Shown: positions 37,832-48,272, counted from the stretch's first letter. The stretch: DNA of 64,000 nt from an uncultured virus (IMG/VR IMGVR_UViG_3300011912_000001) (IMGVR_UViG_3300011912_000001), one strand, 5' to 3'. Numbers and translations: made by a program. The notes: generated by a model from the sequence alone, not told the origin.

Positions 37832-38425
37832 TTACAATTCAAGTTTGTGTGCCATCTCAATCAGCAAGTGGGCTTTGACTTGTTCGATGTCGTCTTCTCC
37901 ATCAAGGGCAATCGGATTTTCTTCGGCGACATATTCTAGATAATGAGCACGGACTTTTGAAAGCAAAGTGTGGTCGCTTTCATAACGGTCATTGACGCCG
38001 TGTTTTCCTTGACGCTTCATGCTTGTCTCCGGGGAAACATCAACGTAAATAGTATAATCGGGGTCTGGTATCGTGTTCCAGAGCGCAATCGCCAAGTCTT
38101 GGTCAACGCCATTGGCTTGGGAGTAGACATATTGACTGAGTTTGTAGCGGTCAAGAATCAAATAGTCATACCCTTCTTGTGCAAGCATCTGGAAATCAGG
38201 GACAGCGGCAATCTTGTCGGCGGCCATGATGAGCTCCATCGCTTGTTGGGGAGCATGGTATTCTCCGTACAAGAATTTCTTAATGAGTTGACCGGTTGGG
38301 GTCGAATACCGATGGAAATCCATGTGACCGACTTTGAATCCTTTTGAATCGAGATAGTCTGCTAGGTGATGACTGAGCGTGGCTTTCCCCGCCTTATCCA
38401 GTCCTTCGAATGCAATGATTTTCAT
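37832..38425 (-). CDS. tmk: Thymidylate kinase
   Basis: IAFEGLDKAGKAT, ILDRY, PDYTIYVDV. Confidence 0.92.
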   Translation of the reverse strand: MKIIAFEGLDKAGKATLSHHLADYLDSKGFKVGHMDFHRYSTPTGQLIKKFLYGEYHAPQQAMELIMAADKIAAVPDFQMLAQEGYDYLILDRYKLSQYVYSQANGVDQDLAIALWNTIPDPDYTIYVDVSPETSMKRQGKHGVNDRYESDHTLLSKVRAHYLEYVAEENPIALDGEDDIEQVKAHLLIEMAHKLEL

Positions 38426-38436
38426 ATGATAGCTCC

Positions 38437-39465
38437 TTAACGAGATAACCGAATGAATCGGTCATGTTGTTTAATCAATGAAGGGAGATTTTTTAAATCA
38501 TCAGGGATGTGAATAATCGGATAATTAAAACGAACAAAGTAATCGGTTAATGTCATACCAATGGTGGTCTGAGCAGATTCTTTATCAATCAATAAGACTT
38601 CGGCATCCCGCATGATTTGTTTCACTGTCGACTCCATTTCTGTTCCATAGATATTGGTGACGCGGAAACCCATGTTTCGCAATACTTCATCGCGTTGACG
38701 AACAGTGTTCATGTTGTCTTTCGAAAGAGACGGGTAATGAATGATAGTGAAATTACTGTAGTCTTTTAGTGACTGAGCAGAATGTTTAAAGATAAGGCTG
38801 ATGCCTTCAGGATTATTCTTATAGTAAGCGGCGTCGACGATATCTCCCGGTTTCACTTTGTAATCCGCGATATCGGAATGGGACAGACATGCAACGTAAG
38901 GCTCTCCGCTTTCAAGCAGGTGGTTGTTGCCGTAAATGTCTTTTGTCAAACAAAGTCCCCGTGAGGTTTTTTCAACAACAAATTCAGACAGTTGGACGCG
39001 CTCTGGGTTCTCGCCACCAGTCTTTTTAAAGATGGTGAAGTTGCGGCGAATCCGATTCTCATGCGTGTAAGGAGGACCACTTTTGACAAGGTCTCCATCG
39101 GATAGCCCCATGTCTCGTACCATTTGTTCGGGTAAGAAGTAATCACCTTTTGGAAGCAGGACGATGCCCCCACGAAGTTTTCGTTTGAATACATAGACAG
39201 GTTCTTCTTCTTCCTCTTCTGGCTCTGGAAGCGGAGGAACTAATTCCTTTTCAACGATAGGAGAGAAATAGGAAGATGATTCAATCTTTAAATCTTCTCG
39301 AATATCAATGAGCTTATCAATGGAAAGAATCAAAGATTGAATGTCTGCCCATTGATTGGAATAATCTTCAGGGTCGTCGAAAATAGAAACCGCATCAATC
39401 TTTTCAAGTAGTTCTTTTTTGTATAAATCAAATAGGTCTTGCATCATCGTCGATTTAGATTGCAT
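38437..39465 (-). CDS. Hypothetical protein (DUF2325-like family)
   Basis: YVFKRKLRGG..FLPEQMVR..GD and GDIVDAAY. Confidence 0.6.
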   Translation of the reverse strand: MQSKSTMMQDLFDLYKKELLEKIDAVSIFDDPEDYSNQWADIQSLILSIDKLIDIREDLKIESSSYFSPIVEKELVPPLPEPEEEEEEPVYVFKRKLRGGIVLLPKGDYFLPEQMVRDMGLSDGDLVKSGPPYTHENRIRRNFTIFKKTGGENPERVQLSEFVVEKTSRGLCLTKDIYGNNHLLESGEPYVACLSHSDIADYKVKPGDIVDAAYYKNNPEGISLIFKHSAQSLKDYSNFTIIHYPSLSKDNMNTVRQRDEVLRNMGFRVTNIYGTEMESTVKQIMRDAEVLLIDKESAQTTIGMTLTDYFVRFNYPIIHIPDDLKNLPSLIKQHDRFIRLSR

Positions 39466-39514
39466 GGTCGAACTCCTTTTCTAAAAAAGGAGCGGTTGCC
39501 CGCCCCCATAGATA

Positions 39515-40138
39515 TCATTTTGTCGAACCGTGGCCGCCTGTACGTTTGCCACCTGCTACATCATCATCTGTCTTTAAGAAAGGTTGGAAGACACCCTGAC
39601 CAATTCTCGTTCCTTTTTTAATTGTGACGGGGAATAAACCAAAGTTGATGAACTGGAACATGATGTGTCCATCGTTGTCTTCATTCTCAAAATAATCTTT
39701 GTCGATGACGCCGACACCATTGCCAAGGAGCAAGAAGTTCTTCATCGGATTACTAGAACGGTTGTAGAGCATCAGGGCTTCATCGTCTCCCATGTTGGCT
39801 TTGACGCCTGTAGGGACGAGCGTCGGCTTCAATGCTTTACGCCATGAGTTCTCGCCGTTTGCTTTCTCTGCTTCTTCGACAACGTTCTCATCGACTTGAG
39901 CACTTGTCGCAATACCTTCTAATGAATTAATCGTATACGTTTCTTTTTCTTCTCCGAACTCATAGGTACGGACATGAGGAACGATGTTTAAGCCTTTGAC
40001 CCATTGCCAAATAGCAGGGTAAATCGTGACATCTTCAGCGGCTTCGAAATCATAACCAGCCGCATGTGTTGTCTGACGTTGAGGTAAATTAATGTTCTCT
40101 TCTTCAAAACCTTTTGCAACCTTAAAATAACGTGACAT
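39515..40138 (-). CDS. dut: Trimeric dUTPase with an insertion
   Basis: AAGYDF, RSS, GVIDKDY, RIGQGVF, RTGGHGST; start reassigned after GGAGG. Confidence 0.93.
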   Translation of the reverse strand: MSRYFKVAKGFEEENINLPQRQTTHAAGYDFEAAEDVTIYPAIWQWVKGLNIVPHVRTYEFGEEKETYTINSLEGIATSAQVDENVVEEAEKANGENSWRKALKPTLVPTGVKANMGDDEALMLYNRSSNPMKNFLLLGNGVGVIDKDYFENEDNDGHIMFQFINFGLFPVTIKKGTRIGQGVFQPFLKTDDDVAGGKRTGGHGSTK

Positions 40139-40177
40139 GTAAAGAACTCCTCCTAATATCAAATAGAAATCTATAGA

Positions 40178-40235
40178 GAAGGGGCGTAGCCCCCGGCTAT
40201 ATAAAAAGTATAGCGTGTTTCCTAGAAACTGACAA
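40178..40235 (-). promoter_or_regulatory. sigmaA promoter followed by AGCCG-hairpin motif, copy 3
   Basis: TTGTCA-17nt-TATACT, then after 8 nt AGCCG-GGGGC-TAC-GCCCC. Confidence 0.7.
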
Positions 40236-40391
40236 ACCTTTTCCATAAGAAAGCCCCTCACTGTGTTTGAGGGTTAGACAAGCCCTAGTGAGGGGTGGAA
40301 CTGCTAGCTTTCTACAAGTATAAACTTGAAGAAAAGGGGTTATGACTCCTTAAGTATATCATGGTTTTCCGCGAAGCGGCTATATAAAATT

Positions 40392-40659
40392 AAAACCCCT
40401 GCCCATGGAAGCCATGAAAGCAGGGGAAACGAGGATTTGATTAATTCTTAATGTTCATCAAAGGGTGGGGCCACGGTGCTGTGTACGAATGTGCTATGTG
40501 CCCTGTGCGCGGGTGGTTCCCATACTCCTGAAGGAGATATTTTATATCTCTAGTTTCCATCGCATTGCGTAGTAATGGCGCACGCCTCGTTTTTTATGAA
40601 GGGCAAGCCCTTCTTGAAAAGCCTATACAACCACGAATAGACCCTTCAAGAAGAGCCCC
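40392..40659 (-). ncRNA. Putative structured RNA with a (N)nnnGCAC repeat tract, downstream of DIP1984-like gene A
   Basis: Hairpins, 6-7 units of 7-8 nt at 40465-40519, terminal CCCCUGC/GCAGGGG hairpin plus U tract. Confidence 0.55.
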
Positions 40660-41205
40660 TTACAGGTACTCTTCGATGCCTTCGAGCTCAGCCAAGTCGT
40701 TGGTATCGATAATCGTCGTGACCGAAGCCGCTTCGATTTCTCGACTCAACCGGTCGGCTTGAAGGAAAAGACTCTTGCTATCTTTAAGCATGCCTTTGAT
40801 ATCATGGTTGCGTTCAACCACGACCTTCTCCCCTTGGCGAAGTCCGCCACCAGTAGAACCGATGGAAATCTTCTTTTGCGAACCAAGGCTTTTAAAGACT
40901 GCCGCATAGTCCCGAAGGAATTTCGCATGAGAAATTGCCTGTTGAATCGGCATCTCCCGGTCTCCGTCTTTGACTTTTACTTGTGCGTTCAACTGAGTAA
41001 TCAGTAGACCAACTTGCAAGTGTAAGTCATGAAGCTTGAGGAGCTTATTGTGGGACTCGACAAACTCTTCTTTTGAGACACTGTCGGTGACGACGTCTGC
41101 TGTCGTCTCCGTGTATTCTCCACGCAAGAACTCATTGCGGGCCATGTACACTTCGTCTTGCAATCGTTTTTTCAATTGAATCAATTGGGATAATGAAATC
41201 TCCAT
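40660..41205 (-). CDS. DIP1984-like helical protein A
   Basis: ISLSQLIQLKKRL, LNAQVKV..EMPIQQAI, IEAASVTTII; paralog of 43981-44607. Confidence 0.65.
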   Translation of the reverse strand: MEISLSQLIQLKKRLQDEVYMARNEFLRGEYTETTADVVTDSVSKEEFVESHNKLLKLHDLHLQVGLLITQLNAQVKVKDGDREMPIQQAISHAKFLRDYAAVFKSLGSQKKISIGSTGGGLRQGEKVVVERNHDIKGMLKDSKSLFLQADRLSREIEAASVTTIIDTNDLAELEGIEEYL

Positions 41206-41235
41206 GGTATCACCTCATTGGTTTATTTGAGAAAC

Positions 41236-41910
41236 TTAAAGATAGTCTCGTAGGTCACGGAAGGAACGGTCATAATGGATTTTTTCCGACTCTACGGAAT
41301 AGACTTTTGATAACTCTCCTACCCGATTGTAAAAAGGATAAGGTAAGAACGATTCCGATTGACGCGCCAATTGCAACCCTCGTTTATTAAACACAACATA
41401 ATAAACAGAATCATCAGGAAGACGATACTCAAAGACTGCCATGAAATGAGCGGCTTTTTCTTGAGGTTTCACATGTCGAAGCCGTTCCAACGCATTCTTT
41501 TCTCGTTGTTCTTGTTGAGCATCGAGAGCGTGAGACTCATAGGGTTCAGCGGTGATGTCAAAAGACTCCGCCGTCAGCAGGATGTCTGAGAAAGATTTAT
41601 ATGCAGAAGTAGAAGGAGAATTAGGACGGGCTTTAGGAATAAACATTTCTCCGTCGAGGAAATAAAGACCCTCTTCTTCTTTATTGAGTTCAAGTTCTGT
41701 TAATCCATCGTCAAATTCACGAAGAATTTGAGCGCTTGCATTTCGAACGAAAGACTGAGAAGGAATAACAACAGAATACTCATGACCATCATTCAAAACA
41801 CGATAGCGGTACTCACTGTAATCTTCTTTTAGAGAGGCTTCGGCATCTAAATCTTGAATACTCTCATGGACAGTATCATAGAAACTAAGAATTTGTTCGT
41901 GGGTTAACAT
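41236..41910 (-). CDS. Hypothetical protein
   Basis: AAGGAGG RBS. Confidence 0.65.
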   Translation of the reverse strand: MLTHEQILSFYDTVHESIQDLDAEASLKEDYSEYRYRVLNDGHEYSVVIPSQSFVRNASAQILREFDDGLTELELNKEEEGLYFLDGEMFIPKARPNSPSTSAYKSFSDILLTAESFDITAEPYESHALDAQQEQREKNALERLRHVKPQEKAAHFMAVFEYRLPDDSVYYVVFNKRGLQLARQSESFLPYPFYNRVGELSKVYSVESEKIHYDRSFRDLRDYL

Positions 41911-42283
41911 TGTTTTCCTCCTTATTGAGACGTTGCATCATATCATTTAGAAAATCATGTGTGCGTTGCTCACTTTTTGATAGAGGCTTGTCTTCTTTTG
42001 TATTACGTAAAGAAGGATTACCTTCTTTATCTTTTGAAAGATAGACACGTCCATTCTGTTCTTCTTCCCAGTAACGACGGTCGCTGTCGAACGGTTCGTA
42101 ATCGGACTTTGCGAGACGGCGGAGTCCTTCTCCGTTTTGTTCGATGATACGATGGAAGATGCGCGCGCGGCGTTCTTCTTGTTCTTGTTCCTCAATAGTA
42201 GGATGAACGAGCTCTTTGACATTCTTCAGATGTCGTTTCCCGTTTACATCTGTAATCCAGTAGACTTTATCGACGAATGGCAT
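41885..42283 (-). CDS. Hypothetical protein
   Basis: AAAGGAGG RBS. Confidence 0.6.
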   Translation of the reverse strand: MPFVDKVYWITDVNGKRHLKNVKELVHPTIEEQEQEERRARIFHRIIEQNGEGLRRLAKSDYEPFDSDRRYWEEEQNGRVYLSKDKEGNPSLRNTKEDKPLSKSEQRTHDFLNDMMQRLNKEENNVNPRTNS

Positions 42284-42302
42284 CGAGCCCGCCTCCTTTC
42301 AA

Positions 42303-42707
42303 TTATTTACTGTCACGTGGTTTGAAGATGTCTTTAATTTTTTCAAGGTCAATGTCTTTCTTTTCTTTCGTCATTGAGTCAATGACTTCATTGACAGAAG
42401 TAAAGACTTCCCCTAAGACGCTAGAGAATTCGCTACTTGTTGGAATGCCTTTATTCCAGTCATTGACACCATTTACGAAGATGCGCTGACCGTCAACACC
42501 ATTCCCATTAATTCGTTTGTCGTTGAGGGGACGAGAAGGATTCGTGTACGCACGACCACCGGGAGTCGCAATCGATACATTATCGGCGATGATAAGCATC
42601 TCGCTATCCTGAGTTTCAACATCCAAGTTTGGGGCATCAATGTTCTTTGCTTTTAAATGTTGACGAATAATATCAATGATTTCAGATTCTGTTAAACGAA
42701 TTTGCAT
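42303..42707 (-). CDS. Hypothetical protein
   Basis: Start MQIRL after AAAAGGAG; the longer track start runs through a tRNA-like element. Confidence 0.6.
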   Translation of the reverse strand: MQIRLTESEIIDIIRQHLKAKNIDAPNLDVETQDSEMLIIADNVSIATPGGRAYTNPSRPLNDKRINGNGVDGQRIFVNGVNDWNKGIPTSSEFSSVLGEVFTSVNEVIDSMTKEKKDIDLEKIKDIFKPRDSK

Positions 42708-42739
42708 GAGGAGTCTCCTTTTAATATAAGTATAGGTAT

Positions 42740-42797
42740 TGTTTTCTACTGGAATTGAACCAGTCGGCGGTGCCGGAACCTTCAAAAAACAGAAAAC
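42740..42797 (-). ncRNA. Shrunken tRNA-like element (58 nt)
   Basis: Acceptor GUUUUCU/AGAAAAC, T arm ACUGG-UUCAAUU-CCAGU, mini hairpin CGGC-ACC-GCCG, no D stem. Confidence 0.6.
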
Positions 42798-42799
42798 AT

Positions 42800-43105
42800 C
42801 CCCATCTATTCAGCCTTGAAGCTGTCTATAGAGTCAATAAATGAACACTCTCTTGGGCTTAGAACCAAGGATTTTATCGAACTTTCACCTGTGACCGTTT
42901 AACTTTCAAGAGTCTGAGGTTTGAGTCGTGAGCGTTGAGCGTTTACCTTTTAACGTTAAGCTTTGAGTATATGCTCTAGAGTCTCCAGCTAGAGCTTTTA
43001 TTCTGTCGCACTCTCTGCATCTGAGGCAGTGAGCTTTACGCCAGAACCCATTGTCATATGAGTGTATTTGATATACTCTTTTTCTTCAGCGTATCCGCTA
43101 AGGTA
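42800..43105 (-). ncRNA. Putative structured RNA with about 12 heptamer-like repeats
   Basis: ORF-free; AAAGCUU/AACGCUC-type units at 42879-42970 flanked by hairpins. Confidence 0.6.
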
Positions 43106-43404
43106 GGTTATCTATATCGTTAGATAGGACGCATTTAGTTCATAGACATTCGAATAGATAGGGATGATACTTTCATTCTCTTTAGATAATATAAAGGAAC
43201 GAAATGGAATATGCAAGTGGGAGCCTTCCCATCTCCCGTTGTGAAAATGGAACAACAAAGCAATAGTCAAAGAGCTTGTTGTGGGAAGGTTGTGCATTAC
43301 AAGTGGTGAACGTGTAATGTCAACAATGTGGCGGGGGAAACCCCATGATAAAAAGAGTATTCACCGCCGGTCACCCGACGGCATAGTGCTCGTGTTGTAT
43401 ATAT

Positions 43405-43476
43405 AGGGCAGGGTCGGACTCGAACCGACGACCTCTCGCCTTCGTGACGCCGCTCTACCATCTGAGCTACCCGCCC
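43405..43476 (-). ncRNA. tRNA-like RNA with 5-nt loop (ACGAA) in the anticodon arm
   Basis: Normal acceptor, D and T arms; CGUC/GGCG stem; no CCA. Confidence 0.75.
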
Positions 43477-43582
43477 AATACAACCACTATACGAAGAAAG
43501 AAACCTAGGTTACTTCGTCATCTCCAAGGAGACTTTTTCATGCGCCCACACGATAAGCATGAGCTAACAAAGGAAAGAACGA

Positions 43583-43951
43583 TTATTTATCTTTCAATAA
43601 ATAAACGTCATGGTATTCTTCAACGATTTTCATATCATCAATAAAGAAATCATCTGCAACTTCTTTTGCTAACGTGAATTGAATCAAATAGTCTTCATCA
43701 GGTGTACCTGTTGATTCGACTACATAGTAAAAACTAAACGTAGGATGTTCGAACGGCTGAAGTTCCGCAATCAATTCTTTGATGCGAGCATGTCCTTCCT
43801 CATAGGTAGCATATGATTCGGTCACATGTTCTTCTTTTGCCAATTCGTTTTCAAGCTCAGGAAAATCATCAGGGGACATCCCCATGGTCGCACCATATGG
43901 AATGTAAGGAACCTGATAATAGAATTCTTTTTTTCGATGCAATGTGTACAT
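43583..43951 (-). CDS. Hypothetical acidic protein
   Basis: GGAGG RBS. Confidence 0.6.
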   Translation of the reverse strand: MYTLHRKKEFYYQVPYIPYGATMGMSPDDFPELENELAKEEHVTESYATYEEGHARIKELIAELQPFEHPTFSFYYVVESTGTPDEDYLIQFTLAKEVADDFFIDDMKIVEEYHDVYLLKDK

Positions 43952-43980
43952 AAGTACCTCCTAGAAGGAGAGGTCTAGAA

Positions 43981-44607
43981 TCAGACCTCAATCAGCGTTT
44001 GCGTGTTGCTTTCAGACAAGGAGTAATCGACTTCGGCTTTAAACTGTTCGATGTCATCTTGCAGTTTTTTAATCATAGCACGAATGTTAGCTGGGTCAAG
44101 GAGCTTCACTTCATGGCGCTTCATGAACGCCTCTTCCGCTTCCGCCACTTCTTCCGGCTTATGTGTGCCTTCTTTTGGGAATGACACTTCGATATGCTTT
44201 TGCGTACGGTCACGGAGGTCAGCTTCTAAGCGAAGTTTTTCCCGGTCCGCATTCATCAACTGATTACGCAAGTTGACGAGCAACTGTTCATCGTACTCAA
44301 TGCCAGTGTCACGGCGGTCGATGGCTTCTGCCACTGTCATTTCAACGCCAGCAATCCGAACAAGAGTCACAGCATTACTTGCAATGATAGCAGATTTAAT
44401 GACCTTACGGCGTTCAATTAAATCATTGACTTTGTCGACGCTTGCTTTCGCTTCGTTTTCGAACACTTCAATCGATGGATAGTGGGCAGGTGCCTTCTCT
44501 CCTGAAGTAACGGCAACAAAGCGTTCAGCGACCGCAACCGTAATGCGTTTATCAAGAAGCTTGAGTTCAGCAAGTGCGCGGTGAATCGACATAGAAGTTT
44601 TAGTCAT
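43981..44607 (-). CDS. DIP1984-like helical protein B
   Basis: MSIHRALAELKLLDKRI, SNAVTLV..EMTVAEAI, VDYSLSESNTQTLIEV. Confidence 0.7.
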   Translation of the reverse strand: MTKTSMSIHRALAELKLLDKRITVAVAERFVAVTSGEKAPAHYPSIEVFENEAKASVDKVNDLIERRKVIKSAIIASNAVTLVRIAGVEMTVAEAIDRRDTGIEYDEQLLVNLRNQLMNADREKLRLEADLRDRTQKHIEVSFPKEGTHKPEEVAEAEEAFMKRHEVKLLDPANIRAMIKKLQDDIEQFKAEVDYSLSESNTQTLIEV

Positions 44608-44649
44608 GAGTAATATCTCCTTTTGTAAGTAGAGTAATATAAAAGTAAA

Positions 44650-45140
44650 TGGAAGATGGCCCTCGCTACGCCTTAGGGCGATGGCATTCCTTGTATTGTT
44701 TTCCCTCCTGCTAGAACCGTAGCGCTAGACAGAAGCCGCAAGACCGGCACGGCTCTCTTCCCTAAGTCGTGAGTACCACATACATGTTTGCTATGTAGTG
44801 ACCGGAGTTTATGTCGTCCGGTGACGGAAGGCTCTCGTAGTCCAACTGGTGATACATACCGTCACAACACGATATGCAAACTTTGCCCTGACACGCCCGT
44901 CCCATAACACGACGCATCACATTATGGAAGTAGAACCCTCAGGTGTCTACCACGATTAGGTAGGATAGCCAGAGCAAAGAAGCAGTTTTCAGACATGCTC
45001 AGGTCTAAGCAATTCGATTTTAGAAGATGCATCTTCCTCCACCGTGGTACGCAAGCGCCCACTACAATCCATGTGAAGCAAAAGAAAAAGAACCATCTGA
45101 TGCATGCAAAGAAAGTTTCTAAACACTACAGATGATTCCA
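44650..45140 (-). ncRNA. Hairpin-rich noncoding segment
   Basis: ORF-free, GC-rich, at least 8 consecutive hairpins and a small pseudoknot. Confidence 0.5.
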
Positions 45141-45144
45141 TAAA

Positions 45145-45216
45145 CGTACTCGGTAGGATTCGAACCTACGACCTAACGGTTAACAGCCGTTTGTTCTGCC
45201 ACTGAACTACGAGCAC
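45145..45216 (-). tRNA. tRNA-Asn(GTT), CCA not encoded
   Basis: Cloverleaf, anticodon loop CTGTTAA. Confidence 0.92.
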
Positions 45217-45226
45217 AAAATAAAAA

Positions 45227-45300
45227 TGGCATGTCGACTAGGATTTGAACCCAGAATAATGGAGTTGGAGTCCATCGTGTTACCGTTACACCATCGACAT
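45227..45300 (-). tRNA. tRNA-Trp(CCA)
   Basis: Cloverleaf, loop CTCCAAC, G73, CCA end. Confidence 0.9.
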
Positions 45301-45375
45301 ATAAAACATATGAATGAATTCCAACAGGAGAGCGACAACGCTCCCACTGCTGGACTTACAACATCCATATGCTAA

Positions 45376-45448
45376 TACCCCGTACGAGAATCGAACTCGT
45401 GACTCCGCCGTGAAAGGGCGACGTCTTAGACCACTTGACCAACGGGGC
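45376..45448 (-). tRNA. tRNA-Glu(TTC), CCA not encoded
   Basis: Cloverleaf, loop CTTTCAC. Confidence 0.92.
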
Positions 45449-45449
45449 A

Positions 45450-45526
45450 TGGTCGGAAGAACAGGATTTGAACCTGTGACCATCTGAGCTTCAATCAGAC
45501 ACTCTACCAGACTGAGTTACCTTCCG
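45450..45526 (-). tRNA. tRNA-Phe(GAA)
   Basis: Cloverleaf, loop TTGAAGC, CCA end; C1-G72 acceptor. Confidence 0.85.
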
Positions 45527-45598
45527 ATTACGAAACAACCTACGAAAGAGGCCGTTTCTGCCTAACAAGTAGGCGCATGGTACGCGTACCAATAATGT

Positions 45599-45693
45599 GA
45601 GTGCGACATGGACAATCTCCAGCCGGGATAGTCCACAGTATATTTTATCAACGGGTTTTAACCGTTGCCGCTGGGCCGGTCCACCTAGCACTC
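45599..45693 (-). ncRNA. Unrecognised structured RNA, copy A (UGGACCGGCCC motif)
   Basis: Closing stem GAGUGC/GCACUC; homologous to 46072-46159. Confidence 0.6.
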
Positions 45694-45705
45694 GTAGGCT
45701 TCATG

Positions 45706-45778
45706 TGGACCCTGTAGGACTCGAACCTACGACTACTCCGTTATGAGCAGAGCTTTCTACCAACTGAATTAAGGGTCC
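45706..45778 (-). tRNA. tRNA(CAT), probably Ile2; CCA not encoded
   Basis: Loop CTCATAA; GGACCCT acceptor typical of Bacillales Ile2. Confidence 0.85.
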
Positions 45779-45834
45779 ATAATCTTGCGTAAGCCGACCA
45801 AAGCACACCGCAAGAGACGTAAGAACAAATAAGA

Positions 45835-45906
45835 TGCCTGTGGATAGGATTCGAACCTACATGTTGTCGCCTTTGCAACCGCTCTACCATTTGAGGTACC
45901 ACAGGC
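45835..45906 (-). ncRNA. tRNA-like RNA with tetraloop (AAAG) in place of the anticodon loop
   Basis: 8-bp acceptor, D loop with GG, canonical T arm, GUUGC/GCGAC stem. Confidence 0.75.
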
Positions 45907-45915
45907 ATAATAAGG

Positions 45916-45989
45916 TATCTGGAAGCAGGACTCGAACCTGCACGCACAGCCGTCGCCGTAGCTCTACCAGCTTAAGACTTATTCCAGAT
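45916..45989 (-). ncRNA. tRNA-like RNA with tetraloop (GACG) in place of the anticodon loop
   Basis: AUCUGGAA/UUCCAGAU acceptor, canonical T arm, ACGGC/GCUGU stem. Confidence 0.75.
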
Positions 45990-45990
45990 A

Positions 45991-46065
45991 TGGTTGCTCT
46001 TGGAAGAGTTGAACTTCCGACCTCCCACTTATCAGGTGGGTGCTCTGCCACTGAGCTAAAGAGCA
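45991..46065 (-). tRNA. tRNA-Ile(GAT)
   Basis: Cloverleaf, loop CTGATAA, CCA end. Confidence 0.92.
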
Positions 46066-46071
46066 ATGTTT

Positions 46072-46159
46072 GAGTACGTCATGACATTCTCATGAGGGAT
46101 GCTCCCGTGTATTATTTCTCACTGAAATCAGTGCCGCCGGGCCGGTCCAAGTAGTACTC
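46072..46159 (-). ncRNA. Unrecognised structured RNA, copy B (UGGACCGGCCC motif)
   Basis: Closing stem GAGUAC/GUACUC; homologous to 45599-45693. Confidence 0.6.
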
Positions 46160-46470
46160 CTTACTCTTCGATACCTCGAATGCCTTCGGGGTTCTTTAAG
46201 AGTAAAGTATACAAAAATAAAAAGCAAGTATAAAATACAAAAAGTTTTAAAAAAATATAATGGAGCGTTTTTTTACATGAAAGGCTCCCAAAACATGACT
46301 AGATGGTACGTGCGTAGCAACACGTCCGTTTGTAAAGGACAAGCGAAAAACCTTTTTGGTAAAGACCAAGGGAAACGAACCCCTGTGGTTCGGCAAGAGT
46401 CAGGCTTCATCCTAAAAAGGAATCAATTCCCTATCACGCCTACTAAGTCGCCAGACATATTTACCTCATG

Positions 46471-46555
46471 CGCCAAGGAAAGGACTTGAACCTTTGTTTC
46501 CGGTAGCTCATTGCAAAGAACGAGCGGCACCGTACTCATCACCTGATTCCAAAGC
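46471..46555 (-). ncRNA. tRNA-like element with extended central arm and imperfect acceptor
   Basis: T arm AAAGG-UUCAAGU-CCUUU; UCAGGUGA shared with 46599-46766. Confidence 0.5.
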
Positions 46556-46598
46556 ATTATAACGGGGCGTTTTATAAAGTAAAAAGGCCCCCAAACAC

Positions 46599-46766
46599 TG
46601 TTCTTCAGAGGAATCGAACCTCTGCATGCTCACAATGATACTACTTGCTTCTACAGCTTACTAAGAGAAAGTATTGGCTGTTAAGTAACGCATTGCCCAA
46701 CATACCTCACTCGTTTTCAGACTACAAAGTTTTCGTCAAAATTGTTCCAAGTCACCTGAGAAGAAC
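46599..46766 (-). ncRNA. Expanded tRNA-like element (168 nt)
   Basis: Acceptor GUUCUUC/GAAGAAC, T arm AGAGG-UUCGAUU-CCUCU, large insert. Confidence 0.7.
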
Positions 46767-46813
46767 ATGATAAAAGAGAGGCGTTTCTGTAAAGTGGAAA
46801 GGCCTCCAAACAC

Positions 46814-46969
46814 TGTCCTGATAAGGAATTGCACCTGTAAACAATCTCTTCGACTGCCCGTTTCAACATACTAAGGTTCCAAGCGTTCGGGCGTAAAGCC
46901 GGTACTAACGTTCCCCCGTTCGATATACTTTGGTGCTTGTGTACTAGGAATGTCTCACTAGAGCAGAAC
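46814..46969 (-). ncRNA. Expanded tRNA-like element (156 nt)
   Basis: GUUCUG/CAGGAC, T-like arm AGG-UGCAAUU-CCU, repeated YUAGUA. Confidence 0.6.
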
Positions 46970-47023
46970 ATGATAAGAAAGAAGAGACATTTGGTTTTAA
47001 GTCAAAAGGTCTCCACAAAAGAC

Positions 47024-47111
47024 TGCTCTTTAAAGGAGTTGCACCTTTAGAAATGCTTATTGATATCCCTATTAGGCCCACAAACTCACATTTCCTACTA
47101 AGAAGAAGAAC
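47024..47111 (-). ncRNA. tRNA-like element without D stem (88 nt)
   Basis: GUUCUU/AAGAGC, GAAAUG/CAUUUC arm, T arm AAAGG-UGCAACU-CCUUU. Confidence 0.65.
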
Positions 47112-47187
47112 ATGATAAAAATGGGACGTTGGATTAACGTGTAAGGTCCCCAAGCACGTGTACATGTTTAAAACCAGTACAATCGGT

Positions 47188-47259
47188 TGCCTTCTGTAGG
47201 ATTCGAACCTACACGGCCGGGGTAGTGCCCCGGAATTCTACCACTTAAATTAAGAAGAC
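47188..47259 (-). ncRNA. tRNA-like cloverleaf with non-canonical loop GCACUAC
   Basis: No U33, G32-C38 can pair; no CCA; runs into a pseudoknot. Confidence 0.75.
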
Positions 47260-47336
47260 AGAATAAGAATAAAACATGACGTTTCTTTTACGTGGAAAGG
47301 TCACCAAAGCACGATGCATTTTAAGTCGGCATAGAC

Positions 47337-47408
47337 TGGTTCCCTCAGGATTCGAACCTGCAATCTTCTCGTATCCACGAGACACTTTGCCAATTAAGCT
47401 AAAGAACC
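47337..47408 (-). ncRNA. tRNA-like cloverleaf with 4-6-nt loop (U)GGAU(A)
   Basis: UCUCG/CGAGA stem; no CCA; runs into a pseudoknot. Confidence 0.75.
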
Positions 47409-47488
47409 ATGATAAAATTGAAGCGTTTTTTTAGACATGGGAAGGCTTCCAAACCCATGATGCTATGTTTTAAGTCGAGCATGCGGAC

Positions 47489-47561
47489 TGTCCTTGGTAG
47501 GATTCGAACCTACGTCTCCGCCCGGGCATGGGCAGTGTCCTAACCGCTTGACCACAAGAAC
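47489..47561 (-). ncRNA. tRNA-like cloverleaf with 6-8-nt loop (C)AUGCCC(G)
   Basis: CUGCC/GGCGG stem; no CCA; runs into a pseudoknot. Confidence 0.75.
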
Positions 47562-47586
47562 ATGATTTTTAATTTAATCATTTAAA

Positions 47587-47670
47587 GAAGGGACGTAGTC
47601 CCGGCTTTCTTTCAGTTTTTAAAAGGTTTATTGGAACAACCATTAAAAAAGAGGGGGCGTAGCCCCGGCT
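47587..47670 (-). promoter_or_regulatory. Two AGCCG-hairpin motifs (47587-47606, 47651-47670) upstream of the RNA array
   Basis: GGAC-GTA-GTCC-CGGCT and GGGC-GTA-GCCC-CGGCT. Confidence 0.65.
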
Positions 47671-47681
47671 CTCTTTATTTT

Positions 47682-48272
47682 TTAATCACTTGCCATACCA
47701 AAGAAGACGTAGTCCGAACGTCCAGCTTTCACCAGTACCTCTTTGTAACTCATATTAGCTGTGAAAACGACAGGGTCTTGATTGATTAAGCGTTTTTCCA
47801 AGACAACGCTTGTGGAATAGCCATACTCTTTTGTATAGGCAATCGCTTTCTTGACGGCATCATCTTTAAACTTTGAAAACTCTACTTGAATAGTACCTTC
47901 ATCAGTGCTGGCATATACCAAGTATAAAGATTCCCATTTACGAGCACCATTGGTTTTCATGTGGTGGCGTTTCACTTTGTCTGGCACATATTCTTTCTTA
48001 TCGTAAGAACGAAGTTTGATATACCCAGTAGGTCCAAATTTATCTGCGATTCTTGGATTACGGTCCCACTTCATCATCTCGACATAGTCTTGTTCTTTGC
48101 CTTTGTATTCAGCGGGGACGGTGATTTCGAGTAACCCCATGCCTTCTTTCTCGGCGATGGTGCCGGTATAACCACCATGACCACTATCATATTTGGCATC
48201 TCGAACAGCATGCTTAAAAGCTTCTTCTGGTGTAGCACCTGAAGCATAGGCTGTAAAGCTTGAAGAACCCAT
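47682..48272 (-). CDS. Hypothetical phage protein
   Basis: AAGGAGG RBS; GHGGYTGTIAEK. Confidence 0.7.
   Translation of the reverse strand: MGSSSFTAYASGATPEEAFKHAVRDAKYDSGHGGYTGTIAEKEGMGLLEITVPAEYKGKEQDYVEMMKWDRNPRIADKFGPTGYIKLRSYDKKEYVPDKVKRHHMKTNGARKWESLYLVYASTDEGTIQVEFSKFKDDAVKKAIAYTKEYGYSTSVVLEKRLINQDPVVFTANMSYKEVLVKAGRSDYVFFGMASD

Follow-up and report, generated by a model that had tools for sequence, protein, structure and literature searches.

In the 64,000-nt stretch of DNA from an uncultured virus analysed here (IMGVR_UViG_3300011912_000001; "the window"), a helical protein of the DIP1984 superfamily (gene A, 43981..44607) and a dedicated structured non-coding RNA (42797..43166) appear, on the balance of the comparative sequence evidence, to form one module. 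Together they resemble an as yet undescribed protein-RNA particle, and we infer that the protein binds the RNA. A genetic tie between a DIP1984-like protein and a downstream repeat RNA is strongly supported for gene A by comparative genomics. The sequence comparisons suggest that this tie holds across the superfamily as a whole, the repeat unit differing between the branches. All genes and RNA parts named below lie on the minus strand of the window.

The RNA has a length of about 375 nt in its putative precursor form and is bounded by a closing helix, P1, of 16 bp (RNAduplex), with the 5′ arm at 43151..43166 and the 3′ arm at 42797..42812, after which U-runs follow at 42780-42796. The minimum free energy of the fold, in which P1 is formed, is −109.5 kcal/mol (z −4.7 versus shuffles). 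Behind the 5′ arm lies a junction motif (43136..43150), the window version of the conserved (C/U)GA-AAAC...UAAAC, and a variable hairpin region (42968..43135, with an inverted repeat at 42965-42979/42989-43003) separates it from the heptamer array (42882..42967). The array consists of 12 units of the type N-U-Y-A-A-A-G, nine of which were called automatically and three read off the sequence, with one spacing of 9 nt. Its lag-7 match fraction of 0.64 in 60 nt is the strongest 7-nt periodicity of the window, for which the mean is 0.25 (sd 0.06) and the next-best place has 0.53. The 7-nt periodicity that a preliminary description had noticed downstream of gene A is thus confirmed, and its unit AAnGYUY is a rotation of the one given here. 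The 3′ domain comprises AAAU plus the 5′ strand of helix Pa (42865..42874), the inner hairpin Pc (42830..42851, 5-bp stem and 12-nt loop), and the Pa 3′ strand with a conserved CUG (42811..42819, RNAalifold). A model of this domain, R1, matches the window at 42807-42882 with 42.4 bits (E 7e-9). We propose an A-type RNA class that is characterized by a P1 helix flanked by the GA-AAAC junction and CUG, by ~8-14 N-U-Y-A-A-A-G units at a 7-nt register, and by AAAUC, helix Pa, a hairpin rod of ~55 nt and then G-CUG; RNA 42797-43166 contains all of these elements. That the array is only the middle part of a larger folded RNA had escaped the preliminary description.

The layout of the closing helix is repeated in 44 distinct relatives. 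In 38 distinct P1 duplexes, 574 Watson-Crick pairs and 114 G.U pairs were counted, and not a single A.C mismatch, which fits pairing in RNA of this strand and not a DNA inverted repeat. The motif of AAAUC, helix and G-CUG is present in 55 of 62 sequences at any spacing; when the spacing is fixed to 51-66 nt, 54 of 62 contain it, compared with 11 of 620 shuffled sequences. The heptamer AAAUCCU, reported earlier after both repeat tracts, is indeed found at both places, and the copy at 42868-42874 lies within this conserved motif. Helix Pa has 19 different sequences among the related loci, with changes on both sides in four of its five pairs (RNAalifold), and constrained folds yielded a single hairpin rod for 32 of 33 distinct 3′ domains. 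The relatives have a median of 12 array units; among 474 units, 98% have A at position 4 and 81% have U at position 2. In partition-function folds, the unpaired probability is 0.42 for the array and 0.39 for the rest (array higher in 26 of 39), so that the predictions do not clearly mark the array as unpaired. A search with the Rfam 15 covariance models (E <= 1) in window positions 38000-48000 and 30 related loci retrieved only tRNAs and unrelated families.

The survey of homologues that had been suggested as a check revealed downstream 7-nt periodicity in most loci. Of 59 viral loci with an A relative, 50 reach a lag-7 value of at least 0.55 in the 600 nt downstream of the gene, compared with 3 of 60 upstream, and the same holds for 69 of 80 bacterial loci; the RNA lies on the strand of the gene. 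The RNA follows an A relative in 440 records of T5-like phages including phage T5 itself, where it is unannotated and located after T5.085. In the relatives it starts 10-70 nt past the A stop codon. R1, which also finds additional loci that a simple pattern had missed, was run on 151 genomes of one bacterial family and matches 11 of them. In nine, the match is located 205-221 nt downstream of a same-strand A homologue, and the other two genomes have no A match. A further observation concerns the surroundings: in phages and bacteria, the RNA is mostly found within co-oriented tRNA gene arrays, and the module travels with them.

The preliminary description had each gene followed by its tract, which holds for gene B (40660..41205). 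In contrast, gene A lies ~0.8 kb from its RNA and ~1 kb from the array, showing that adjacency is not obligatory. In this window, the space between A and the RNA has received two insertions, a 122-aa ORF (43583..43951), without a match in family searches, and a tRNA-Ser(cga) gene (43405..43476; ARAGORN and Rfam tRNA, 45 bits). The ORF is a variable cassette that is outside the module in the relatives, and in the DNA run X3 its stretch is swapped for 297 other letters (joint 43606/43943). Three ORFs of 134, 132 and 224 aa (41236..42707), for which family searches also gave no match, lie between the RNA and gene B on the same strand.

Metatranscriptome contigs from two studies, one of 344 nt in X16 and two of 340 nt and 211 nt in X17, hint at expression as a discrete RNA of ~340 nt in close relatives (88-99% alike to the window; the strand is not readable from the contigs). 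They span just 42803..43143, starting inside the junction motif at 43143 and stopping at 42803-42811, so that the P1 5′ arm is absent and gene A is outside, whereas a DNA contig of X3 continues past both ends. Sequence differences among the relatives' contigs concentrate at 42975-43053 within the variable hairpin region, and the nearly invariant array is their most conserved part.

Gene A encodes a protein of 208 aa, predicted to fold into a bundle of helices that carries a small beta "head" (AF2 model, pLDDT 91.8), which matches phrog_1491 of the PHROG collection (E 1.7e-59) and has relatives in 737 phage records (tblastn). Gene B encodes a rare DIP1984-like protein of 181 aa (AF2 model, pLDDT 79) from the phrog_25222 branch; its family has 12 representatives among 1.84 billion proteins, and its relatives match phrog_25222, DUF6847 and the DIP1984 family weakly. 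The two genes had been called paralogs on the basis of shared motifs. BLASTP found no match between A and B, but profile-profile comparison of the two families (hhalign) aligned the N-terminal 106 columns with a probability of 94.6% (E 7e-8), and a common N-A..V..E-M..(Q/E)-A-I block lies within them. PDB 3kdq, the DIP1984/DUF6847 protein of Corynebacterium diphtheriae with the same central motif, is matched by the family profiles of A (E 0.0019) and B (E 0.0035) and is the top Foldseek match of both AlphaFold models (E 0.0024 and 0.012, respectively). Judged by profiles and predicted structures, A and B are distantly homologous to the DIP1984/DUF6847 family and share the fold of 3kdq. They are longer than the family members and stay under the curated cut-offs, with no match to NF038048 (DIP1984) or PF20935 (DUF6847) at E <= 0.1 in NCBIfam and Pfam. 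Distant relatives of B come closer: P0014 and P0015 reach 28-30 bits (cut-off 70) and 21 bits (cut-off 27) with the curated HMMs; the match of such distant B-family members to the NCBIfam "DIP1984 family" has E 4e-7, under its cut-off. A Pfam search of A and B (E 0.01) retrieved no family, and thus no IVS-protein family; family-profile searches assigned neither protein to a nuclease family, nor A to a recognisable DNA-binding family. An assigned function of the DIP1984 family was not found in the literature searched.

The relatives of A keep an invariant E-M-T-V-A-E-A-I hairpin. For A, a symmetric self-contact is predicted with a score of 0.47 versus 0.02 for the best control. Of 30 solved homo-pairs, 20 attain this mark, as does 1 of 23 single chains; at least 69% of the contacts agree between runs, with a partner pLDDT of at least 82. 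Instead of the RNA-binding ring that had been envisaged, modelling points to a dimer, and the predictor may have learned this contact from the crystal structure of 3kdq.

Gene B is followed by a conserved non-coding stretch (40388..40659, based on spacer conservation and RNAalifold), with a hairpin (40607-40656), a predicted closing helix (40585-40592 with 40427-40434), a GCAC tract (40476-40512), AAAUCCU (40432-40438), and a terminator (40396-40426 plus a U-run). RNAalifold predicts 41 pairs, three of them with changes on both sides (one in the terminator), from two sequences only. Gene B and this RNA would represent another module of the superfamily, diverged from the first and with a unit of the G-Y-A-C type. 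It is quite possible, if slightly on the improbable side, that B has no repeat-RNA partner and that the GCAC periodicity arose by chance in a conserved 3′ UTR and terminator region of the B operon. The periodicity of 7-8 nt described previously is weak, with lag-7 values of at best 0.54 over 35 nt and 0.42 over 60 nt (ranks of 0.3% and 1.2% of window positions), and taken alone it is not beyond chance for 64 kb. The exact 7-nt steps number only three, the units are partly lost in the close relative L063, where lag 8 beats lag 7, and searches with R1 and with an nhmmer profile of the DIP1984-type RNA gave no match to the stretch, for which the overall lag-7 value is 0.48 (background rank 1%). 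Arguing against chance, the stretch is more conserved in L063 than the end of the gene. In addition, B-like genes of Agatevirus are followed by ~450 nt of conserved non-coding DNA with a ..AC heptamer run and then AAAUAAUCC (lag-7 value 0.55), and G-Y-A-C runs of a similar kind occur at +120 to +165 after canonical DIP1984 genes. Of 20 canonical loci, 18 have a conserved downstream element that ends in AGGGYGGG, a motif with three occurrences elsewhere in 117,536 nt. When six lags were compared, lag 7 scored highest at 10 of 21 DIP1984 or B-type loci. This downstream RNA of canonical members is absent from Rfam and was not found in the literature searched. The suggestion of two specificities in one phage therefore draws on a short, weak tract without an R1 match, one close relative, and the analogy with Agatevirus and DIP1984.

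For the RNA downstream of gene A, an unlikely alternative is that it is real, but that its partner is a host factor, e.g. a single-strand RNA-binding protein, a nuclease or the ribosome, which the array soaks up or guides, A being merely co-inherited or co-regulated in a tRNA-operon cassette. The stable-RNA-like contigs that leave out gene A, the distance between A and the RNA in the window, and the two R1 matches in genomes without A are compatible with this, as are the A/U-rich units, which are alike over proteobacterial, Bacillota and cyanobacterial hosts as would be expected for a universal target. On the other hand, the same-strand linkage of gene and RNA recurs in hundreds of otherwise unrelated genomes, and the units differ between branches of the superfamily, which fits a cognate pair better than a common host target. 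Co-variation of unit and protein clade, proposed as a further check, is seen in one clade (L034, L038, L043 and L045), in which the unit differs and the otherwise conserved A residues R66, R67, T81, K82, S198 and T204 are replaced; as a single evolutionary event, it does not prove recognition.

Somewhat less likely still, the heptamers could act as DNA, i.e. as a 7-bp operator array under A dimers that controls the downstream tRNA operon or A itself. A precedent is the omega repressor of inc18 plasmids, a ribbon-helix-helix protein whose dimers cooperatively coat ~7-10 heptad 7-bp sites in double-stranded DNA with the same periodicity. The predicted symmetric dimer, the array's position between A and co-oriented tRNA genes, AT-rich -10-like boxes right upstream of several arrays, and an annotated T5 promoter that abuts the 3′ end of the region would all fit. 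However, the array of A is enclosed by covarying helices rich in G.U pairs, which places it within a transcribed and folded RNA; the RNA contigs span it, and A has no recognisable DNA-binding family.

Heptamer simple repeats, such as the bacterial TAACTGA repeats (PMC4679880) and the heptamer repeats of cyanobacteria, are a known class. They are 7-nt tandem units that are near-perfect, dispersed and often near tRNA and rRNA genes. That the array is such a neutral repeat or a mobile-element remnant is very improbable, in spite of perfect heptamer repeats of other sequence adjoining some cyanobacterial copies (L121, L132-L134), because its units are degenerate and not slippage-perfect, their core positions and similar count are kept across phages of several phyla, and the one direct array, the most conserved part in close relatives, has a fixed place in a covarying scaffold downstream of a gene.

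In the preferred reading, a dedicated protein-RNA pair, the RNA would be transcribed on the strand of gene A, mostly inside a tRNA operon, and its flanks would pair to form the long stem P1, probably a processing or stability stalk. Between the conserved junction and the conserved 3′ hairpin domain, the ~12 degenerate units would be held in place, and copies of A, probably dimers, most likely bind them at a 7-nt register via the conserved beta-hairpin "head", yielding a particle of defined size. TRAP and HutP, which act on Bacillus mRNA leaders, are oligomers in which each subunit reads one short single-stranded RNA word of a regularly spaced series, and HutP sites recur every 7 nt. If A reads its array, it would work by analogy, with an unrelated fold; the leaders are cis-acting, contain 6-11 trinucleotide words and control termination, whereas here a stand-alone folded RNA with ~12 heptamers lies beside the gene of the protein in tRNA operons. 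In sponge RNAs of the CsrB/RsmZ type, a short word bound by a protein is present in many copies, which occupy irregularly spaced hairpin loops, and the gene of the bound protein is elsewhere, in contrast to the strict 7-nt register and linked gene of the A module. In type III toxin-antitoxin systems (ToxIN), common in phage-host conflict, a tandem-repeat RNA gene adjoins the gene of its binding protein, an endoribonuclease toxin; the repeats of ~34-36 nt lie upstream and are cut into units. A and B lack a nuclease family match in the family-profile searches, and the RNA is downstream with a 7-nt unit, so that the module does not belong to this type. Its role might lie in a phage-host conflict that involves tRNAs or translation.

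The minus strand carries every gene of the region. In reading order on this strand, a tRNA cluster (45144-47562) is followed by gene A (43981-44607), a 122-aa ORF (43583-43951), a tRNA-Ser(cga) gene, a stretch of about 620 nt devoid of credible ORFs, four ORFs of which gene B (40660-41205) is the last, a spacer of about 400 nt, and the dUTPase gene. The cluster contains at least 10 co-oriented tRNA genes; ARAGORN reported irregular anticodon loops in two of them (47336-47409 and 47488-47562) and missed an additional tRNA at 45836-45905 that was matched by Rfam. The 122-aa ORF is a swappable cassette, with 297 unrelated letters at this place in a related DNA contig. The longest-ORF call of the dUTPase gene (39515-40261) has a long N-terminal extension with a Pfam match from residue 145, and the actual start probably lies more internally, 3′ of a promoter-like site at 40207-40235. 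A pattern scan for sigma-70 promoters and terminators yielded no more sites than shuffled sequences, and a near-identity search of 50,697 phage records revealed no near relative of the window.

The 7-nt periodicity between A and B is the strongest of the 64 kb (42882-42967, self-match fraction of 0.64 vs. a mean of 0.25). This array is part of a larger RNA that spans 43166 to 42797 and has a fold z-score of −4.7. We fetched 60 viral loci with relatives of A, 59 of which included downstream DNA. An array was present in 50 of the 59, 140-370 nt past the A stop codon, and the same array type was found upstream of the A relative in only 3 of 60 loci. The elements in the viral loci have a fixed order, i.e. 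a 5′ arm, a junction with (C/U)GA-AAAC...UAAAC, variable hairpins, the array, AAAUC, a hairpin domain spanning roughly 55 nt, G-CUG, and a 3′ arm that is complementary to the 5′ arm.

Of 62 sequences, 55 carry the AAAUC-helix-GCUG signature (54 of them with a spacing of 51-66 nt), compared with 11 of 620 dinucleotide shuffles at the same spacing, and the helix of the signature, Pa, is formed by 19 different sequences. RNAalifold found changes on both sides in four of the five Pa pairs; because its input sequences were pre-selected for pairing, the shuffle control is the fair test of this helix. When Pa was imposed as a constraint, a single irregular hairpin resulted for 32 of 33 distinct 3′ domains. 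The closing helix of the RNA, P1, is present in all 44 distinct sequences and directly adjoins both junction motifs. Its 38 distinct duplexes contain 574 Watson-Crick pairs, 114 G·U pairs, nine single mismatches, and not a single A·C. This asymmetry is predicted by pairing at the RNA level on the strand of the module and is unlike what would be expected of a DNA inverted repeat or of the opposite strand. No Rfam 15 family matches the RNA, either in the window or at 30 related loci. A tRNA-like or tmRNA identity was rejected, ARAGORN and Rfam being silent at this site, as was a hammerhead or kink-turn reading of the GA.../CUG junction, at which conservation is limited to CUG and GA.

The arrays of 44 RNAs comprise 474 units (median 12 per array), and the most common spacing among the arrays listed is seven. 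A predominates at positions 4 (98% of the units) and 5 (87%), U at position 2 (81%), and G at position 7 (60%); these fractions are somewhat inflated because the unit model was trained on the same data. Mimicry of anticodon loops by the units was considered only as an idea and dropped. Mimicry of Shine-Dalgarno motifs was rejected, as the base following the G of the unit is least often G (7%). One clade (L034, L038, L043, and L045) has a different unit, and three further loci (L030-L032) have a third one. The A proteins of the former clade are 69-94% identical to one another and at most 43% identical to all others, and they replace the otherwise conserved residues E14, R66, R67, T81, K82, E97, S198, and T204. 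The different unit and the replaced residues trace to a single evolutionary event, so their coincidence is no more than suggestive.

Expression of the RNA is hinted at by public data. None of the sequencing runs covers the sequence of the window well, the fraction of the words of 42780-44620 present in a run being at most 0.29, and run X15 yielded a single piece of 189 nt inside gene A; parts of the region that are devoid of RNA cover are not to be taken as silent. Metatranscriptome contigs of close relatives from two studies (344, 340, and 211 nt) cover just 42803-43143, and a DNA contig of a relative extends beyond both ends of this segment. This fits an abundant discrete RNA, the strand of which is not given by the contigs. 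The ends of the RNA contigs fall 8 nt inside the junction of the P1 5′ arm and within the 3′ arm, respectively, and based on these positions P1 may be a processing stalk.

The module is not confined to this phage. Protein A belongs to phrog_1491 as a full-length member (E 1.7e-59), a family that carries the label “tail fiber protein” without evidence behind it, and it was detected by tblastn in 737 phage records, including T5-like phages of Salmonella and Escherichia as well as Bacillus, Pseudomonas, Vibrio, Erwinia, Klebsiella, and Lactococcus phages. With 90-100% identity, the T5-type RNA was detected in 440 phage records, and it lacks annotation in 36 of the 40 matches listed. In T5 itself, the RNA occupies the gap between T5.085 and the T5.084 promoter; no description of an RNA at the gap after T5.085 was found in the literature searched, the scope of which did not extend to subscription-only or old T5 papers.

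Nor is the module confined to phages; in bacterial genomes, the A profile matched 107 places, of which 80 were kept. The homologues belong to Exiguobacterium (50% identity), Lysinibacillus, Solibacillus, Paenibacillus, and many filamentous cyanobacteria; the array is present at 69 of the 80 loci and the strict 3′ signature at 51. The homologues closest to A (about 50% identity) are those of Exiguobacterium, with the RNA downstream (L068-L074, L139), which hints that this genus is perhaps the host clade of the phage. A model of the 3′ domain, R1, recovered Lysinibacillus and Solibacillus copies that have CAG in place of CUG. Among 151 genomes of one bacterial family, 29 encode an A homologue and 11 have R1 matches, nine of which are located 205-221 nt 3′ of an A homologue. 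Six cyanobacterial loci (L121, L124, L127, and L132-L134) additionally contain perfect tandem heptamer repeats of unrelated sequence 290-365 nt past the A homologue; these represent a known repeat class adjoining the degenerate, functional-looking array. The module differs from heptamer simple repeats, as far as these are covered in the part of PMC4679880 consulted, in being a degenerate direct array with a fixed place in a covarying scaffold.

The module is associated with tRNA genes, which lie within about 1.5 kb at 44 of 56 viral and 44 of 80 bacterial loci, and all 541 neighbouring tRNA genes are on its strand. For comparison, tRNA genes were found within the same distance at only 1 of 20 loci of canonical DIP1984 genes. 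The cyanobacterial copies are located within long tRNA arrays, which correspond to the “L-arrays” of PMC8421152; the part of that study consulted reports protein genes embedded in tRNA arrays, and the portion of its text searched contains no mention of this RNA. Two other orphan RNA motifs were observed nearby, RAGATH-33 in a viral tRNA cluster (L039, 8711-8837) and a skipping-rope RNA directly 3′ of the module in Paenibacillus (L076, 2516-2644).

A and B had been described as two DIP1984-like paralogs, which is right as remote homology. BLASTP gave no alignment between them, but the family profiles align in the N-terminal half (probability 94.6%, E 7e-8), both match the C. diphtheriae DIP1984 structure 3kdq (E 0.0019 and 0.0035), and distant B relatives match the NCBIfam “DIP1984 family” model with E 4e-7. 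Canonical Pfam DUF6847 proteins are that NCBIfam family (E 1e-52 to 1e-54); neither A nor B scores above the curated family cut-offs. The AlphaFold models of A and B (pLDDT 91.8 and 79.2) both have 3kdq as best Foldseek match. When A was modelled as four copies, the self-contact score was 0.47 (best control, 0.02); among solved homo-pairs, 20 of 30 attained this mark, as did 1 of 23 single chains. In these runs at least 69% of the contacts agree, the partner pLDDT is at least 82, and the contact is predicted to be a symmetric pairing along the helices; this result may stem from the solved 3kdq crystal. In the model, the invariant residues of A (K71, N78, E89-I96, F189, D194, and N201) map to the bundle end at which the β-hairpin meets the two terminal strands. 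No description of the function of either family was found in the literature searched, which mostly excluded subscription-only papers.

B is rare: it has five close relatives, and 1.84 billion proteins yielded 12 representatives; its protein cluster includes a 237 kb contig. It has no tblastn match in phage records and no match in viral contigs, and the metagenome scan yielded a single short contig (L063). On this contig, the 3′ domain of an A-type RNA (907-983) lies about 730 nt upstream of B (1717-2259), so that the RNA-to-B synteny of the window is conserved, with fewer genes between. The tract that had been proposed as the repeat RNA of B (40476-40512) contains few GCAC steps. In comparison with the one related contig, conservation is higher in the spacer after B than at the end of the gene, and the consensus fold combines a hairpin on the 5′ side with a closing helix of 8 bp, to which the AAAUCCU-adjacent CCUCGUUU contributes, and a terminator bearing a compensatory change.

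In Agatevirus phages, a B-like gene (phrog_25222) lies within a tRNA cluster. The roughly 450 nt 3′ of it are conserved and non-coding, and include a heptamer run of the ..AC type, with AAAUAAUCC coming next. Canonical DIP1984 genes, present in 20 of 401 Bacillota genomes, have a conserved element of about 200-320 nt at their 3′ side (L148-L165), consisting of GGTAGC, a helix with covariation, a T-loop-like hairpin, a short G-Y-A-C heptamer run at +120 to +165, CTACC, and AGGGYGGG. The terminal AAGGGYGGG-like motif occurs at 18 of 20 DIP1984 loci vs. three times in 117,536 nt elsewhere. At two tandem DIP1984 gene pairs (L150/L169 and L151/L168, in two Bacillota genomes), the AGGGYGGG element follows the downstream copy only. 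A lag of 7 was the best of six lags at 10 of 21 DIP1984- and B-type loci, with about 3.5 expected by chance. The element has no Rfam match, its nhmmer profile does not match the window or the B-type loci, and R1 found nothing credible at B-type and DIP1984 loci. The Agatevirus and DIP1984 downstream elements, together with the lag-7 counts, make a second, G-Y-A-C-reading branch of the superfamily plausible; for the B of the window, such a reading is not established.

Taken together, the observations of the preliminary description are confirmed in part, and its interpretation, partly supported, is much enlarged, i.e. to an apparently undescribed, widespread gene-RNA module. No description of this RNA was found in the literature searched, which included few subscription papers. 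By possible mode of action, the nearest systems are periodic RNA readers (TRAP, HutP), sponge RNAs, repeat-RNA antitoxins, and heptad-DNA repressors; to our knowledge, none of these shares the fold, unit, layout, or context of the module. A joint reading is conceivable, albeit rather unlikely in its entirety. The whole DIP1984/DUF6847 superfamily would be RNA-coating proteins, each branch with a cognate structured RNA that carries an array in 7-nt register (U-Y-A-A-A-G for phrog_1491, G-Y-A-C for DIP1984 and phrog_25222), and the word would be set by residues near the β-hairpin head. The phrog_1491 particle would then belong to the standard make-up of the mobile tRNA arrays in cyanobacteria and in large lytic phages, T5 among them, would so far have gone unnoticed there, and would act in the contest over tRNAs and translation.

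For a widespread protein family that has a solved structure but no known function, the module offers a first lead on function. The RNA represents a large conserved class that is absent from Rfam 15 and present in the model phage T5. Both partners are linked with tRNA arrays in phages and bacteria, the biology of which is under active study, as the part of PMC8421152 consulted indicates.
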